64,000 bases of DNA from Nocardioides sp. (GTDB lineage Bacteria; Actinomycetota; Actinomycetes; Propionibacteriales; Nocardioidaceae), in NCBI GenBank assembly GCA_049841015.1, contig JASGIN010000014.1:517148-581147 (forward strand). The letters run 5' to 3'. The position numbers and the translations under genes are program-made. Positions within the stretch are counted from its first letter, which is position 1. Each line of letters starts with the position of its first letter. Shown piece after piece: positions 16,652-55,639 of this stretch. The notes beneath the pieces are model-generated. The model did not search any database, had not been told where the DNA came from, and was given only the letters and a program-made list of their open reading frames with translations.

Positions 16652-17572
16652 ATGGCTGAGAGCACCACCGAGACCACCTCCACGGCGACCCAGGGCACCG
16701 GCACCACCCGTGTGAAGCGGGGCATGGCCGAGATGCTCAAGGGCGGTGTGATCATGGACGTCGTCACCGCCGAGCAGGCGAAGATCGCCGAGGACGCCGG
16801 CGCCGTCGCGGTGATGGCGCTCGAGCGGGTGCCCGCCGACATCCGCGCCCAGGGCGGGGTCTCCCGCATGAGCGACCCGGACATGATCGACGGCATCATC
16901 GAGGCGGTCTCGATCCCGGTGATGGCCAAGGCCCGGATCGGCCACTTCGCCGAGGCGCAGGTGCTGCAGAGCCTCGGTGTCGACTACATCGACGAGTCCG
17001 AGGTGCTGACTCCCGCGGACTACGCCAACCACATCGACAAATGGCACTTCACCGTGCCGTTCGTCTGCGGGGCGACCAACCTCGGAGAGGCACTGCGCCG
17101 GATCACCGAGGGCGCGGCCATGATCCGCTCCAAGGGCGAGGCCGGCACCGGCGACGTCTCCAACGCCGTGACCCACATGCGGACCATCGGCGGCGAGCTG
17201 CGTCGGCTGACCTCGCTGAGCGAGGACGAGCTGTACGTCGCCGCCAAGGAGCTGCAGGCGCCGTACGACCTGGTCCGCGAGGTCGCCTCCGCCGGCAAGC
17301 TGCCGGTCGTGCTCTTCACCGCGGGCGGCATCGCGACGCCTGCCGACGCGGCGATGATGATGCAGCTGGGTGCCGAGGGCGTGTTCGTCGGCTCGGGGAT
17401 CTTCAAGTCCGGGAACCCCGCGCAGCGCGCGGAGGCGATCGTCAAGGCCACGACGTTCTACGACGACCCGGACGTCGTCGCGAAGGTGAGCCGCGGCCTG
17501 GGCGAGGCGATGGTCGGCATCAACGTCGACGAGATCCCGCAGCCGCACCGGCTGGCCGAGCGCGGCTGGTAG
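16652..17572 (+). CDS. pdxS: Pyridoxal 5'-phosphate synthase lyase subunit
   Basis: [46 protein letters not shown]. Confidence 0.98.
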
Positions 17573-17591
17573 AGCCCCTGGCCCGGGGGCT
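17573..17591 (+). terminator. GC-rich hairpin directly after the pdxS stop
   Basis: agcccc/ggggct stem with no U-tract. Confidence 0.4.
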
Positions 17592-17706
17592 GTCCGGGCA
17601 CGATGACAGCGATTGACTCGGATCTGTCACTCAAATGACTTAACATTCCCTTGAGGGAACACGCACCTGGCCGCCGGCCAGTTTCTCAAGCGAAGGAATG
17701 TTTGCG

Positions 17707-18352
17707 ATGCCACGCACCATCTCGGGTCGCTCGGCAGACCGCAAGACCATCTGGTGGTGGGCGGGCGGTCTGGTGGCCGCCGTCGTCCTCGTGCTCGGGG
17801 TCAGCGGCACGCTGTCGAGCTGGACCAGCGCGATCATCACCAACGACAACAACACCACGTCCTTGACCGAGGCGATGCGTCTGGTCGAGACCGACGGCAC
17901 CGTGACGTGTGACACCGGCACGTCGGACACCAACACCGTCACGTGCTCCGACATCAACAAGTACGGCGGCACCAGCACGCCGCTGGCGCCCGGCGACGCC
18001 CACCACGTGACGGTCACGCTGACCAACCGCGGCACGGGCACGGGCGACCTGACCCTGTCGTCGGAGAGCTGCCAGAGCAGCCTGGTCGACCCCGCCGACG
18101 GGTGACGCCAGCGCGGATGCGTGCGAGATCGTCACCGTGCACGTCGCGTGCACCACCAGCGACGACCACACGTTCGACAGCGGCACCAGCTCGCTGGCGA
18201 CGTCCACCGGTGGCGACGTCGGCAGCCTGGCGCCCGACGCCTCGGCCTCGTGCACGTTCGACGTCGGCCTTCCCGCCAACGCTCCGACGGAGTACGCCGG
18301 CCACCAGGCCTCGCAGGTGCTCCGCTGGACCCTCACCGACGAGCCCGCGTGA
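17707..18352 (+). CDS. SipW-class exported, TasA-like subunit A; +1 frameshift as sequenced (GGG at 18100-18102), about 214 aa if corrected
   Basis: Signal peptide ending GVSGTLS-SWT. Both halves (17707-18105 and 18101-18352) align to the paralogue downstream (AIITN.NNT, C-x10-C, INKYGGT..PL.PG, CxF.VGL, WTLT). Confidence 0.7.
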
Positions 18353-19020
18353 TGGCGGCCGAGATGCGGAGCCGGAAGGCCGTCGCCCTGCTCTGGGTCG
18401 GCGGCGTGGTGGCCGCGACGCTGGTGGTCCTGGGCGTCAACGGCACCCTGTCGTCGTGGACGCAGGCGATCATCACCAACCCGAACAACACCGCCGCCAC
18501 GAACGGTGCGCCGATCCTGCAGGAGACGCAGGGCGCCAACACCTGCCTGTCGAGCTCGAGCGCGACCAATGTCTCCACATGCACGACCATCAACAAGTAC
18601 GGCGGCACGGCCAGCCCGCTCAGCCCGGGGACCAGCCAGACGGCCGACGTCACGTTCACCAACGTCGGTGCGGTGAAGGGGTCGACGTTCACCCTCACGT
18701 CGGGGGCCTGCACGCAGAACCCGACCGCGGGCACCGGCACCCCGCCGGCGAACAACCTGTGCACCAACGGTGACCTGACCATCGCAGTGTCCTGCTCGCC
18801 CGGTACGACGTACTCGGCCGGCAGCGCGTGGACCGACCTGGTGGCGACCGCCACCAGCCCGGCCACCTTCGCCGCCGGTGCGGGGCTGACCCACACCACC
18901 GGTCTGGCGGCCGGGGCCTCGGCGACCTGCCGGTTCACCGTCGCCCTCGGCTCGGGCGCCGGCGTGCTGGACCAGGGGATCGTCGTCACGCAACCGCTGA
19001 CCTGGACCCTCACCGCCTGA
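18352..19020 (+). CDS. SipW-class exported, TasA-like subunit B (222 aa)
   Basis: Signal peptide ending GVNGTLS-SWT, Thr/Gly/Ser-rich beta-type sequence with six Cys, ends QPLTWTLTA. Start overlaps the upstream stop. Confidence 0.75.
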   Translation: MAAEMRSRKAVALLWVGGVVAATLVVLGVNGTLSSWTQAIITNPNNTAATNGAPILQETQGANTCLSSSSATNVSTCTTINKYGGTASPLSPGTSQTADVTFTNVGAVKGSTFTLTSGACTQNPTAGTGTPPANNLCTNGDLTIAVSCSPGTTYSAGSAWTDLVATATSPATFAAGAGLTHTTGLAAGASATCRFTVALGSGAGVLDQGIVVTQPLTWTLTA

Positions 19021-20420
19021 TGCAGCAGGAGCCTCGACGCTCCCGGCGAGGCCTTCTCGCCGGGAGCATCGCCGCCGTCGTCGCCCTGCTGGGCGTCGTC
19101 CTGGTCTCGCCCACCGAGGCCAGCTGGACCCAGGCGCAGGTCGGCAACAGCACGGACTCCGCGGCCTCAGGTGGGCTGGCCTTCACCCACGTGGGCACGG
19201 CCACCTGCTCGGCGGGCCCGGCCGTGGCCTCCAGCACCACGTGCCCCGGCACGGTCACGCCGACCTCCGCCACGTCGGCGACGGCCGCGGTCACCGGGAC
19301 CGACGCGATCACCGACAACGGCACCCTCCCGGCGTCGCGACTGAGCCAGAAGGTGCAGGCGAGCTCGTGCGCCCCGGTGAGGTACGACAACTCCAAGACC
19401 GCGACCGACCCGCTCCTGCCGAGGTTCGCCACGGCGTTCCAGCAGTCCGACGGCTGGGGGACGACGACCGCGACGAGCCTGTCCTCGGGCGCGTACGCCA
19501 CCGACCCGATCGGCGTCACCGGGGTGTCCGTGCTGGGCTCGAACTGGACGATCGGGATCCGGTTCAAGGTGGCCAACGGCTACACCGGTGGGGGCGGGCT
19601 CATCTCGCTGGCGCCCAGTCCCAGCAACGCCACGACCGGCTCCGGGCCGCTCGAGCTCTGGATGGACAACACCGGCAAGCTCCGGTACCAGGTCGTCGGG
19701 ACGCTCGGGCTCGGCACCACCTCGGGGGTGAGCTCGGCGGCGTACAACGACGGCCGGTGGCACACCGCGGTCCTGACCATGGGCTCGGTGCTGATCTCCG
19801 GTGTCTTCCTCTACGTCGACGGCGTCCAGGCCACCTCGAGCCTCGGCCTGTCGGCGCTGACGGGGGTCGCGGCGTACTGGCACCTCGGCTGGGCCGATGC
19901 GGGCAGCCTGACCGGGGCTCCGTCGTCTGCCGCGATCACCGGCTCGCTCTCCGGCGCGTTCGTGACTGCGGCCGCCAGCAGCCTGACGAACCTCACGGCC
20001 GTCAACAACGCCGCGAGCGCGTCGGCGTACAGCACGGCCGTGCTGGCGCTGTCGAACGTCGGCAACCTCTGGATGCTCGGTGACCCCGGCACCACGACGT
20101 ACGCCGGGACGCTGCCGGCCACCATGGCCACCCCGTGCGCGCAGGTGGACGTCGCCTTCGGCTTCACGAGCCCGACCGCGAGCATCGCCCAGCAGAGCCT
20201 GGCGGCGTTCGTGGCGGGAGGCGGCGGCACCGTCGCGGCCCCGGGCCCGGGGGTCACTCAGACGATGACGGTGTCGCTGACCCGCGACGCCACGTGGAAC
20301 GGCGACGTCGCGGGCCTGCACCTGTACGCGCCCCTCACGGTGACCGAGACCACCGCCCCGGCCAGCACGTGGTCGCTCGCGTTCACCTGGCCCTCGGCTG
20401 CGGGGGCGTTCCTGGCATGA
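19020..20420 (+). CDS. SipW-class exported protein with an internal LamG/concanavalin A-like domain (466 aa); putative adhesin
   Basis: Signal peptide ending PTEA-SWT. LamG-type motifs WTIGIRFK, LWMDNTGKL, YNDGRWHTAVLT, LYVDG, WHLG. Start overlaps the upstream stop (TGATG). Confidence 0.75.
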   Translation: MQQEPRRSRRGLLAGSIAAVVALLGVVLVSPTEASWTQAQVGNSTDSAASGGLAFTHVGTATCSAGPAVASSTTCPGTVTPTSATSATAAVTGTDAITDNGTLPASRLSQKVQASSCAPVRYDNSKTATDPLLPRFATAFQQSDGWGTTTATSLSSGAYATDPIGVTGVSVLGSNWTIGIRFKVANGYTGGGGLISLAPSPSNATTGSGPLELWMDNTGKLRYQVVGTLGLGTTSGVSSAAYNDGRWHTAVLTMGSVLISGVFLYVDGVQATSSLGLSALTGVAAYWHLGWADAGSLTGAPSSAAITGSLSGAFVTAAASSLTNLTAVNNAASASAYSTAVLALSNVGNLWMLGDPGTTTYAGTLPATMATPCAQVDVAFGFTSPTASIAQQSLAAFVAGGGGTVAAPGPGVTQTMTVSLTRDATWNGDVAGLHLYAPLTVTETTAPASTWSLAFTWPSAAGAFLA

Positions 20421-21241
20421 GACGGGTCGCGCAGATCACCGGCGGAGCGCTGCTGGCCGCCCTGGTCTGCCTCGTCGGCTTCGCCGGCCTCTGGCGCCTG
20501 CACGGGGGCCGCGTGGAGCGGGTCGAGACGCCGTCGATGGGGACCGTGGCCCCGGTCGGCTCGTTGCTCTGGGTGGCGCCCGTGGACGCGACGACGCTCC
20601 GGCCCGGCGACTTCATCAGCTTCCACCCACCCGGGGACGACAGTCGCACCTACAGCCACCGGGTCCTGCGCACGTATCCGGACGGCAGCCTCCAGACCCA
20701 GGGCGCGATCACGGCTCCCGATCCCTGGCGTCTTCAGCCGTCGGACGTCGTGGGCGAGGTCGTCATGACCTGGCCAGGCATCGGACTGCTGGTCCACTCG
20801 GCGCCGTTGCTGGTCGCCGGCGGTTGCGCGGTGGCGCTGACCGCCGGACGCCTGCGTCGGGAATGGCGGGCCCTGGCGCTGCTGGTCGGGGCGAGCGTGG
20901 TGCTGGCCGCGGCGATCACGGTCTACCGACCGTTCACGAACGCCGAGCAGCTGGCGTTCACGCCGGTCCACGACGGGGCGCGCGCGACGTACGTGTCGAC
21001 GGGCCTGCTCCCGGTGCGTCTGACGGCCGACGGAGGCGGGTCGGTGGTCCTCGCCGACGGCGAGCGCGGATCTGTGACCGTGCCCGGCGCGACGGGGCAG
21101 CAGCGCTTCGCGGTGCACCTCGGTCCCGCGGTGCCGTGGGAGTTCTGGGCCGTCCTGGTCGGGCCGTGCTTCGTGCCGGCCGCCGGCGCGACCGCGGCGC
21201 GGGCGACGCAAGCGCGTCGGTCGCCCGGCGCAGCTGGGTGA
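20417..21241 (+). CDS. Signal peptidase I, SipW/archaeal type (S26B), with a C-terminal membrane extension
   Basis: TM helix, then VETPSM (catalytic Ser), LRPGDFISF, YSHRV (His in place of Lys), TQG...PDPW, VVGEV. ATGA overlap. Confidence 0.8.
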   Translation: MRRVAQITGGALLAALVCLVGFAGLWRLHGGRVERVETPSMGTVAPVGSLLWVAPVDATTLRPGDFISFHPPGDDSRTYSHRVLRTYPDGSLQTQGAITAPDPWRLQPSDVVGEVVMTWPGIGLLVHSAPLLVAGGCAVALTAGRLRREWRALALLVGASVVLAAAITVYRPFTNAEQLAFTPVHDGARATYVSTGLLPVRLTADGGGSVVLADGERGSVTVPGATGQQRFAVHLGPAVPWEFWAVLVGPCFVPAAGATAARATQARRSPGAAG

Positions 21242-21271: not shown

Positions 21272-21925
21272 GTGCTCCATTCAGGCTCCTCGACGGCCGC
21301 GACCGCGGCCGGTGCCCCGACCGTCGGGGTCTTCGCGCTGCAGGGCGACGTGCGCGAGCACCTGCGCATGCTCGGTGGCCTGGGCGTCCGCGCGATCGGC
21401 GTACGTCGCGTCAGTGAGCTGGAGGAATGCGACGCCCTCGTCGTGCCCGGAGGCGAGTCGACGACCATGGCGAAGCTGGCCCGCACCTTCGACCTGTTCG
21501 AGCCGATGCGCCAGCGGATCAAGGAGGGGCTGCCGGTCCTGGGCACCTGCGCCGGGATGATCATGCTCGCCGACCGGGTCGAGGACGGGACCGCCGACCA
21601 GGAGACGCTCGGCGGCCTCGACATCACCGTCCGGCGCAACGCGTTCGGGCGTCAGGTCGACTCCTTCGAGGGCGAGGTCGCGTTCGCCGGCCTGGACGCC
21701 CCGGTCCACGCGGTCTTCATCCGGGCGCCGTGGGTCGAGAGCGTGGGCTCCGACGTCACCGTGCTCGCCCAGGTCGAGGAGGGGGCGGCCGCGGGTAGGA
21801 TCGTGGCGGTCCGCCAGGGGTCGTTGATGGCGACGTCCTTCCACCCCGAGGTCGGCGGTGACGACCGCGTCCACCGCCTGTTCCTGGACCTGATCGACGC
21901 ATCCGTGCCCGAGCGAACGAAGTAG
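21272..21925 (+). CDS. pdxT: Pyridoxal 5'-phosphate synthase glutaminase subunit
   Basis: [45 protein letters not shown]. Start codon uncertain. Confidence 0.96.
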
Positions 21926-22795: not shown

Positions 22796-23321
22796 ATGCG
22801 CGTGCTGGGGATCGACCCGGGCCTGACGCGGTGCGGCATGGGCGTCGTCGAGGGGGACGTCGGCAAGCCGCTGCGTCTGATCGACGTCAACGTCCTGCGC
22901 ACGTCGTCCGACGAGCACGTCTCGAAGCGGCTGATGCACATCGAGCGAGGCATCGAGGCCTGGCTCGACGAGCACCGGCCGGACGCCGTCGCCATCGAGC
23001 GGGTGTTCGCGCGCTCCGACTCCAGCACGGTCATGGGCACCGCCCAGGCGAGCGGGATCGCGATGGTCGCCGCCGCCCGCCGCGACCTGCCCCTGGCCCT
23101 GCACACGCCGTCCGAGGTCAAGGCCGCGGTCTCCGGTAGCGGCCGTGCGAGCAAGGCCCAGGTCGGCGCCATGGTCACCCGGATCCTGCGGCTTGGACGC
23201 CGCACCGAAGCCCGCCGACGCCGCCGACGCCCTCGCCCTGGCGATCACCCACATCTGGCGCGGCGGTGCCCAGGCCCGGATCGACGCCGCGCTGGCCGCG
23301 GCCGGCCGGAGCGCCCGGTGA
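22796..23321 (+). pseudogene. ruvC: Holliday junction resolvase RuvC; +1 frameshift at about 23193-23196 as sequenced (probably a sequencing error)
   Basis: LGIDPG, AIERVF, TPSEVKAAVSG in the first frame. PKPADAADALALAITH continues in the next frame to TGA 23321. Confidence 0.9.
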
Positions 23322-52851: not shown

Positions 52852-54031
52852 ATGCTGCGCTGGCTGACTGCGGGGGAGTCCCACGGCCCGGCGCTGGTCG
52901 CCGTGCTGGAGGGGCTGCCGGCGCACGTCGAGATCACCTCCGACGACATCGCCGAGGCCCTGGCCCGCCGGCGCCTGGGTCGTGGCCGCGGTGCTCGGAT
53001 GAGGTTCGAGCAGGACGAGGTCAGCATCCTGGGCGGCGTCCGGCACGGGCGCGACGCCAGGGCGGCCCGGTGGCGATCCAGATCGCCAACACCGAGTGGC
53101 CCAAGTGGGAGAAGGTGATGGCCCCCGACCCGGTCGACCCGGTCGAGCTCGAGGGACTGGCGCGCAACGAGGCGCTGACCCGCCCGCGCCCGGGTCATGC
53201 CGACCTGGTCGGCATGCAGAAGTACGCCTTCGACGAGGCCCGGCCCGTGCTCGAGCGGGCCTCGGCCCGCGAGACCGCCGCCCGGGTCGCGCTGGGGCGG
53301 GTCGCGAGCGCGTTCCTGGAGCAGGCGACGGGGGCTCGGCTGGTCGCGCACGTGATCGAGCTCGGGGGAGTCCGCGCCCCGGCCGGCGTACTGCCCGTCG
53401 CGGACGACGTCGCTCGGCTGGACGCCGACGAGGTGCGCTGCCTCGACCCCGACACCAGCGCGGCCATGGTCGCGCGCATCGACGAGGCCCATCGCGACGG
53501 CGACACCCTCGGCGGCGTCGTCGAGGTGGTCGCGTACGGGCTGCCTCCGGGCCTCGGCTCCCACGTCCACTGGGACCGTCGCTCGACTCCCGGCTGGCCG
53601 GTGCCCTCATGGGGATCCAGGCCATCAAGGGCGTCGAGGTGGGTGACGGGTTCGAGCTGGCGGCCACCCCGGGCAGCCTCGCCCACGACGAGATCGTGCC
53701 CACGGACGAGGGGATCCGGCGCACGAGCGGGCGCTCGGGCGGCACCGAGGGCGGCATGTCGACGGGTGAGCCTCTGCGCGTCCGCGCGGCGATGAAGCCG
53801 ATCGCGACGGTGCCTCGTGCGCTGCGCACCGTCGACGTCGCCACCGGCGAGGCGGCGGTGGCCCACCATCAGCGCTCCGACGTGTGCGCCGTGCCGGCGG
53901 CGGGAGTCGTGGCGGAGGCCATGGTGGCGCTGGTGCTGGCCGACGCGGTGCTGGAGAAGTTCGGCGGTGACGCCGTGTCCGAGACTCGGCGCAACGTCCA
54001 GGGCTACCTCGACACGCTGAGATACCGGTGA
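52852..54031 (+). pseudogene. aroC: Chorismate synthase; at least two frameshifts as sequenced (about 53047-53060 and about 53581)
   Basis: [37 protein letters not shown], then [31 protein letters not shown], spread over three frames. Confidence 0.93.
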
Positions 54032-54038
54032 CCGGCGC

Positions 54039-55639
<1,601 letters not shown>

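Follow-up and report, generated by a model that had tools for sequence, protein, structure and literature searches.

A cysteine-rich cassette of TasA-like proteins with its own SipW-type peptidase, a candidate surface-fiber locus between pdxS and pdxT of Nocardioides

Fibers of the TasA type have been studied in detail in Bacillus, in clostridia and in archaea, and we found no experimental work on such fibers in Actinomycetota in the literature searched. Here we analyze a cassette of four plus strand genes (genes 1 to 4, positions 17707-21241) that lies between pdxS and pdxT of Nocardioides sp., a high-GC soil actinobacterium. The DNA analyzed is a 64,000-nucleotide stretch of contig JASGIN010000014.1 (the window), and all positions are those of the window unless another locus is named. 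We consider it reasonably likely that this accessory cassette codes for members of a divergent, cysteine-rich TasA-superfamily branch and for a SipW-type peptidase dedicated to them, and that the products assemble into a surface fiber.

The tapA-sipW-tasA operon of Bacillus subtilis (PDB 8aur; PMC9674648, PMC10151520) resembles the Nocardioides cassette in having a secreted beta-sandwich subunit, which profile comparison puts in the same superfamily, a signal-peptide junction of the form G-T-[WFL]-[AS] with a conserved N-terminal peptide after it, and a dedicated Ser/His peptidase of the SipW type within the operon; neither operon has a sortase. The Nocardioides subunits are, however, too distant from TasA to be recognized by PF12389 or TIGR04088 and carry four to six conserved cysteines, the cassette lacks a TapA-like gene, its third subunit bears a LamG domain, and its peptidase, which is encoded last in the operon of this high-GC actinobacterium, has an extra membrane half of two segments. 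To our knowledge TasA itself lacks cysteine.

The sipW-bsaA-bsaB-bsaC locus of Clostridium perfringens likewise consists of four genes that encode a SipW peptidase, two remote TasA paralogues and a larger secreted protein of the adhesion type, with signal peptides on all three secreted proteins (PMC11580942). The large protein there is of the von Willebrand A type rather than a TasA-like scaffold with a LamG insert, BsaA has isopeptide locks where the Nocardioides proteins have conserved cysteine pairs, the gene order is reversed, and BsaC secretion requires type IV pilus genes, none of which was seen next to the Nocardioides cassette. The AbpX, ABP and Tafi loci, which occur in archaea and some bacteria (bioRxiv 10.64898/2026.01.04.697558; PMC9245690; PMC12337348; PMC11821415), share with the cassette a major subunit, an AbpX-like minor subunit, a predicted tip protein and a dedicated signal peptidase I; AbpX also has a predicted disulfide, and assembly in this group is by donor-strand complementation, the mode that we propose for Nocardioides. 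These loci represent other branches of the TasA superfamily, and the peptidase of AbpX loci has ten transmembrane helices and a DUF5305 partner, whereas the gene 4 protein has four hydrophobic segments and no partner gene, and Tafi subunits are exported by the Tat pathway.

Actinobacteria also have canonical SipW cassettes, recognized by TIGR04089/TIGR04088 and TIGR02228, in which exported TasA-like proteins are paired with a SipW-type peptidase and which can occupy the same chromosomal site, as in congener L011. Unlike the cassette described here, these pass the curated models. Their junctions are of the AYWSD type and they encode an LPGTG protein along with two peptidases, but they have neither a LamG subunit nor the cysteine pattern. 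The general kind of system is known, and by itself the Nocardioides cassette extends it incrementally; it is set apart by a sequence family that escapes the curated models, by the cysteine pattern, by a LamG domain placed within the subunit scaffold, by the enlarged peptidase and by the fixed site between pdxS and pdxT. The cassette is compact and self-sufficient, with one or two subunits, a further subunit that bears a lectin domain, a peptidase and no sortase, and should be readily transferable to a laboratory host. It would allow tests of whether strand-donation fibers occur in high-GC Gram-positive bacteria, of a lectin domain borne in a disulfide-closed loop of a subunit and of the role of the extra half of the peptidase.

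Genes 1 and 2 encode paralogues with six cysteines each, as a first-pass annotation of the window had proposed from the sequence; the two proteins are 40% identical and have INKYGGT..PL.PG and a C-terminal WTLT in common. The cassette is more than a chance arrangement, as 10 other loci show the same order of genes and 264 representatives of the gene 2 family were found (50% clustering, E ≤ 0.001). We compared profiles (hhalign) of 111 family representatives and of 21 actinobacterial proteins that pass PF12389 (gathering cut-off 22.5 bits). The family of genes 1 and 2 matched these Peptidase_M73 proteins at 98.9% in global mode (E 1e-16, 186 columns) and at 97.8% in local mode, with the signal-peptide junctions of the two groups in register, and a reversed control gave 0.1%. 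With signal peptide and junction cut on both sides the mature parts alone still matched at 95.3% (E 2.3e-8, 137 columns). The aligned motifs, L.PG...V.F.N.G and a C-terminal N..QG...F.F, are presumably the TasA strands around PGD and NKYQG. Because the match holds on the mature part, we place genes 1 and 2 in the TasA superfamily as a family of their own, remote by profile comparison from TasA and camelysin. The TasA-like identity first assigned to the two subunits is therefore supported by profile-profile comparison, not by the hidden Markov models (HMMs) that had been proposed for checking it. A metalloprotease reading of the name "camelysin" was rejected since the proteins lack HExxH.

The AlphaFold2 model of the gene 2 protein is a beta-sandwich with a mean predicted local distance difference test (pLDDT) of 79.9 and low confidence at the mature N-terminus (residues 31-46). 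When this model was searched against the PDB with Foldseek, the TasA fiber 8aur_A gave the top probability (0.96) and the widest coverage of the compact alignments (204 columns), with a best template modeling (TM) score of 0.42 and E 0.04. The Foldseek comparison with TasA that had been suggested thus gave a borderline match to 8aur. A profile search of PDB sequences gave nothing relevant.

Gene 3 had been read as a LamG adhesin gene, and the lectin fold was confirmed: the AlphaFold2 model (pLDDT 89.5, predicted TM score 0.85) matched the LamG modules of PAPP-A, pentraxins and neurexin LNS with E values of 5e-9 to 3e-7 at probability 1.00 (Foldseek). Its homologues are annotated as LamG-domain proteins and many carry PF13385; gene 3 itself falls below threshold in the HMM scan (PF02210, E 0.072). 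What the earlier reading overlooked is that gene 3 is also a TasA-like subunit. In hhalign comparisons with the family of genes 1 and 2, the match to the first two thirds of the subunit spans residues 9-144 (97.3%, E 1.8e-11) and that to the last third spans residues 366-445 (74%, E 2.8e-5). The four cysteines of gene 3 align with Cys65, Cys77, Cys120 and Cys137 of gene 2, Cys117 and Cys373 being the equivalents of Cys120 and Cys137, and hence the insert lies in the loop between the second cysteine pair. By sequence alignment and model, gene 3 is a TasA-like scaffold into which a lectin-fold domain of about 240 residues has been inserted, and its product is a candidate tip or adhesin subunit that may bind a ligand. 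The n-region of its signal peptide, PRRSRRGLLAGS (residues 6-11, 19035-19052), is twin-arginine-like, but the arginine pair is not conserved in the family consensus.

Gene 4 had been taken for a signal peptidase of the Ser-His type, and its relationship to SipW is clear from profiles. The gene 4 family matched 21 canonical SipW-type peptidases at 98.9% (hhalign, E 1.4e-17, residues 2-128), with PSM aligned to SGSM, SHRV to THRV and PDPW to PDP, such that Ser40 and His81 coincide with the catalytic Ser and His of SipW and Asp102 with the conserved PD. Four residues are invariant in 41 gene 4 homologues: S40 (20534-20536), M41, H81 (20657-20659) and D102 (20720-20722). These homologues are named "S26 family signal peptidase". 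TIGR02228, by which gene 4 was to have been recognized, scored it below the curated cut-off of 51.85 bits (22.1 bits, E 1.1e-4, residues 26-126; 23.2 bits in the genome search), and TIGR02227, the LepB-type model, did not match it; the LepB of this genome scores 130 bits and is encoded on another contig. Gene 4 is the only SipW-type peptidase of the genome. The protein has four hydrophobic segments (about residues 5-27, 120-142, 151-171 and 243-261), and its C-terminal half (residues 129-274) comprises two or three of these plus a conserved domain of about 70 residues and has no similarity to the subunit families. Judged from sequence, gene 4 encodes a Ser/His peptidase of the SipW type that is extended by a membrane-bound C-terminal half. 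Since a SipW-type peptidase adjoins 20 of 27 actinobacterial Peptidase_M73 loci, the pairing of such a peptidase with TasA-like proteins is general.

The proposed mechanism is conveniently divided into four steps: (i) the products of genes 1 to 3 would be exported with the junction that they have in common, of the type G-T-L-S before S-W-T, (ii) the gene 4 peptidase, acting through Ser40, His81 and Asp102, would cut at this junction to expose the N-terminal peptide SWT.A.I.N..NT, (iii) oxidative folding would staple the beta-sandwich cores with two or three intramolecular disulfides, and (iv) the subunits would assemble head to tail by donation of the N-terminal strand of each subunit to its neighbor, as happens in the TasA, ABP and AbpX fibers. 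The common junctions that were first noticed are indeed present in the translations (GVSGTLS-SWTSAII in gene 1, GVNGTLS-SWTQAII in gene 2 and SPTEA-SWTQAQV in gene 3), and cleavage at these sites, strand donation and fiber formation are proposed by analogy with TasA (PMC9674648), ABP (PMC9245690), BsaA (PMC11580942), Tafi (PMC12337348) and AbpX (bioRxiv 10.64898/2026.01.04.697558). Gene 2, the type of subunit that is kept in loci with a single subunit gene, would supply the major subunit, with gene 1 adding a second one that is optional; gene 3, built on the same scaffold with its LamG lectin-fold domain in the loop corresponding to Cys120-Cys137, would provide the tip or adhesin. The segment after the predicted cut has pLDDT values below 50 in both monomer models (gene 2 residues 31-46, gene 3 residues 30-43) and, though unpacked in these models, is conserved in all three paralogues as well as in the family at large.

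Several findings weigh against this picture. At E ≤ 1 genes 1 to 3 matched none of PF12389, TIGR04088 (cut-off 19 bits) and TIGR04089 (60 bits); PF12389 also matched nothing in the whole genome, and genome-wide searches with the two TIGR models found nothing in the cassette. The same TIGR models recognized the canonical cassette of a congener, used as the positive control (TIGR04088 29-30 bits, TIGR04089 162.9 bits), so the expectation that the signal peptides would fit the SipW-cognate models failed. Even among the 111 relatives PF12389 was matched weakly by 2 (best E 8.6e-4) and TIGR04088 by 1 (E 0.0055). Confidence is low over the first third of the gene 2 model, and Foldseek found no PDB match to that model at E ≤ 0.001, the signal-peptide helix in the model lowering the scores. 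Within the cassette there is no obvious gene for an anchor, a TapA-like nucleator or a chaperone, a simple scan found no sigma-70-like promoter at the cassette, and gene 1 is frame-broken as assembled.

Given these points, the best-surviving alternative, which we regard as unlikely but worth weighing, is that the proteins are exported and processed without forming a polymer, as surface or matrix proteins that stay monomeric or associate loosely, namely two small beta-sandwich proteins and a lectin that could bind polysaccharide or neighboring cells. The borderline structural match to the TasA fiber and the lack of an anchor, chaperone or nucleator gene would be in keeping with such proteins, the case for a polymer is made by analogy, and the superfamily contains a misnamed family, since camelysin was first called a protease. 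The conserved N-terminal peptide argues for a polymer instead, as one post-cleavage sequence is found in three paralogues and is left unpacked when each chain is modeled by itself. Moreover, operons with several paralogues are typical of heteropolymeric fibers, and all characterized members of the TasA superfamily form filaments (PMC9674648, PMC9245690, PMC11580942, PMC12337348).

The cassette is conserved as a module and patchily distributed. We searched for the gene 2 family in 274 other Nocardioidaceae genomes (45 of the same genus, 21 of a second genus and 208 from 58 further genera) and found it in 11, of which 3 were from the same genus and 8 from the second genus, with none among the 208; distant versions were present in two genomes from a different family within the order. 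Eleven loci, the window's among them, all have the order subunit(s)-LamG subunit-peptidase, and none lacks the gene 2 type, gene 3 or gene 4. The gene 1 type occurs in 7 of these (6 of the 10 other loci), and 9 of the 11 lie directly upstream of pdxT. The pdxS-pdxT junction is empty in two congeners, holds unrelated genes in another and a canonical five-gene SipW cassette in a third (L011; TIGR02228 88.6 bits, TIGR04089 162.9 bits). Given this varied content, the junction behaves as a replaceable island for surface structures.

In 5 of 8 family loci examined (L072, L073, L075, L076 and L077, from two genera) a canonical and a cysteine-rich cassette lie side by side, whereas the window's genome has the cysteine-rich cassette only, with no canonical SipW cassette. 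The proteins of the window resemble those of the other genus at least as much as those of congeners; for gene 2, identity is 55-59% with the congeneric counterparts and 59-65% with those of the other genus. We found no direct or inverted repeats flanking the cassette and thus no mark of a mobile element. The cassette is an accessory island, for which old alleles and exchange between genera are both possible sources. The first-pass annotation had described the site of the locus correctly and had missed its accessory nature. A fixed site with interchangeable cassettes is a tidy example of surface-structure islands in soil bacteria.

A bolder extension of the fiber reading, which we hold as rather doubtful speculation, is that the cysteine-rich family represents a distinct and self-contained class of TasA-superfamily fiber, that the four-segment peptidase, besides cutting the subunits, provides through its conserved extracytoplasmic C-terminal domain the membrane platform or anchor that nucleates the fiber, in place of TapA or an LPXTG anchor, and that the pdxS-pdxT junction is a site at which Nocardioidaceae swap whole fiber cassettes by recombination in the conserved flanks. 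If it is such a swap site, the cell surface would vary at the level of strains.

Some genes at or near the junction of relatives are recorded here as observations. In L011 (5881-9421, minus strand) the canonical cassette comprises a TIGR04089 protein, the SipW peptidase, the LPGTG protein, an AYWSD-type TasA-like protein and a second peptidase of 459 residues, which has a substrate-like GTLATFSD motif past the peptidase domain; NMO-like and CLC-channel-like genes come next. The unrelated cargo of L012 (8419-11630, same genus) is a PIN-domain-like gene, a membrane protein gene, a small regulator-like gene and a nitronate-monooxygenase-like gene, and pdxS of that locus was matched over its last 111 residues only. 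TetR-like and ferredoxin-reductase-like (MPYVVTQSCC...) genes stand alongside in two of the five loci with both cassettes, and the latter gene is found in two further loci as well.

Gene 1 as assembled is not a single open reading frame. Frame 1 ends at TGA 18103-18105 after ...LVDPADG, and the conserved C-terminal half (DASADACEIV...RWTLTDEPA) is in the +1 frame from 18104 to 18352, the break site being GAC GGG TGA C (18097-18106). The count of four genes given at first had joined the two frames; genes 2 to 4 are intact. Gene 1 orthologues are uninterrupted (211 and 209 residues; L016:141-776 and L018:5346-5975), and the joined gene 1 aligns with them over its whole length. Exact-pattern scans of metagenome and genome collections did not find near-identical DNA at the break site. 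Five kilobases away ruvC is also broken (22796-23285): orthologue residues 17-149 match 22796-23194 and residues 166-179 match the next frame at 23244-23285. A DNA alignment places one extra base at about 23196, with CTTGGAC in the window and CTC-GAC in a relative, and the ruvC frame therefore runs on into ruvA. The ruvC break is probably an assembly indel. Completeness of the genome is 91.9% although it consists of just 16 contigs. Since ruvC has a similar one-base break and the genome is 91.9% complete at 16 contigs, the gene 1 break is most likely an assembly indel too, which we judge about twice as likely as a real mutation. Were the break real, the strain would build the fiber without its optional subunit. 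Programmed +1 frameshifting at GGG-UGA-C is unlikely, as the orthologues are encoded in one frame, no Shine-Dalgarno-like stimulator was seen upstream and ruvC is broken similarly.

It is improbable, in our estimate, that the cassette is decaying or silent in this genome, with gene 1 a true pseudogene and the other genes perhaps no longer expressed. The frame break at 18103 is what such decay would leave, and the cassette is evidently dispensable, not having been found in 42 of the 45 other genomes of the genus that were searched, but both halves of gene 1 retain every conserved residue and all six cysteines, genes 2 to 4 are intact and translationally coupled, and the same kind of one-base break in a housekeeping gene, ruvC, points to the assembly. 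Relatives manage with gene 2 alone, judging from the four loci that lack the gene 1 type. We conclude that this fiber cassette is real and probably functional.

The cysteines bear on how the subunits would be held together. The mature part contains an even number of cysteines in all 111 representatives (2 in one, 4 in 59 and 6 in 51). Cys65, Cys77, Cys120 and Cys137 are 95-99% conserved, and Cys148 and Cys193, which complete the set of six in gene 2, are gained or lost together (35 representatives have both and 69 neither). The even count and the paired gain and loss fit intramolecular disulfides, so that two or three bonds within each chain are likely from the sequence pattern; the earlier description of the proteins as disulfide-stabilized gains support from this parity, with the pairing itself deduced. 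The pairs to be expected are 65-77, 120-137 and 148-193 in gene 2 and 117-373 in gene 3. A polymer in which covalent links supplement strand donation, through intermolecular disulfides or a lock like the isopeptide bonds of BsaA, seems to us quite improbable. BsaA proves that the superfamily can add covalent locks (PMC11580942), and four nearly invariant cysteines plus an optional pair could serve one, yet the strictly even number and joint gain and loss are best explained by pairs within the chain, and gene 3, with four cysteines, retains exactly two pairs that bracket its insert.

A sortase-assembled pilus is effectively refuted: the genome has three sortase genes and the neighboring canonical SipW cassette of relatives includes an LPGTG protein, but genes 1 to 3 have neither an LPxTG-like motif nor a C-terminal hydrophobic anchor (a pattern search found no L[PA]x[TAS]G in genes 1 to 4), nor homology to pilin families, and the sortase genes are on other contigs (C4, C9 and C16) with none in or near the cassette, all consistent with the sortase independence first suggested.

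The layout of the locus is as originally described, with four co-directional genes between flanks identified by PF01680 and PF01174 (Table 1). Translational coupling through overlapping stop and start codons was likewise confirmed at the sequence level (TGATG at 18350-18354 between genes 1 and 2, TGATG at 19018-19022 between genes 2 and 3 and ATGA at 20417-20420 between genes 3 and 4). The boundaries of genes 2, 3 and 4 agree with the gene calls of a protein collection (P0002, P0392 and P0272), and genes 2 and 3 have a composition rich in Thr, Ala and Gly. For gene 1 we prefer the start at ATG 17707, which has GAAGGA 9 nucleotides upstream.

Table 1 Features of the cassette and its flanks (positions in the window)
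Feature	Position	Strand	Description
pdxS (pyridoxal phosphate synthase subunit)	16652-17572	+	Upstream flank; PF01680 SOR_SNZ, 358 bits
Leader, 134 nucleotides	17573-17706	+	GC hairpin directly 3' of the pdxS stop, second long hairpin, GAAGGA Shine-Dalgarno at 17692-17697
Gene 1, N-terminal part	17707-18105	+	Signal peptide, predicted cleavage between S37 and S38, first half of TasA-like accessory subunit; in-frame TGA at 18103-18105
Gene 1, C-terminal part	18104-18352	+ (+1 frame)	Three of the six cysteines, WTLT end
Gene 2, 222 residues	18352-19020	+	TasA-superfamily subunit, presumably major; predicted cleavage between S34 and S35
Gene 3, 466 residues	19020-20420	+	TasA-like scaffold split by LamG-fold domain; predicted cleavage between A34 and S35
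Insert of gene 3 (approximate)	19392-20114	+	LamG/pentraxin/concanavalin-A-like; residues ~125-365
Gene 4, 274 residues	20417-21241	+	SipW/Sec11-type signal peptidase, catalytic part ~residues 28-128, plus family-specific C-terminal half
pdxT (glutaminase subunit)	21272-21925	+	Downstream flank, 30 nucleotides past gene 4; PF01174 SNO, 200.6 bits

The flanking pdxS is 92-96% identical to pdxS of other Nocardioidaceae genomes, and 3' of pdxT lie yebC and then ruvCAB. The leader folds with a z-score of -2.4, its second long hairpin ending 17 nucleotides 5' of the gene 1 start; no Rfam family or riboswitch matched it and a simple scan found no terminator within it. The leader hairpins might attenuate read-through from pdxS. 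Elsewhere in the window, at 53000-54400, three short coding segments on the same strand abut in different frames and are either another frame break or small overlapping genes.

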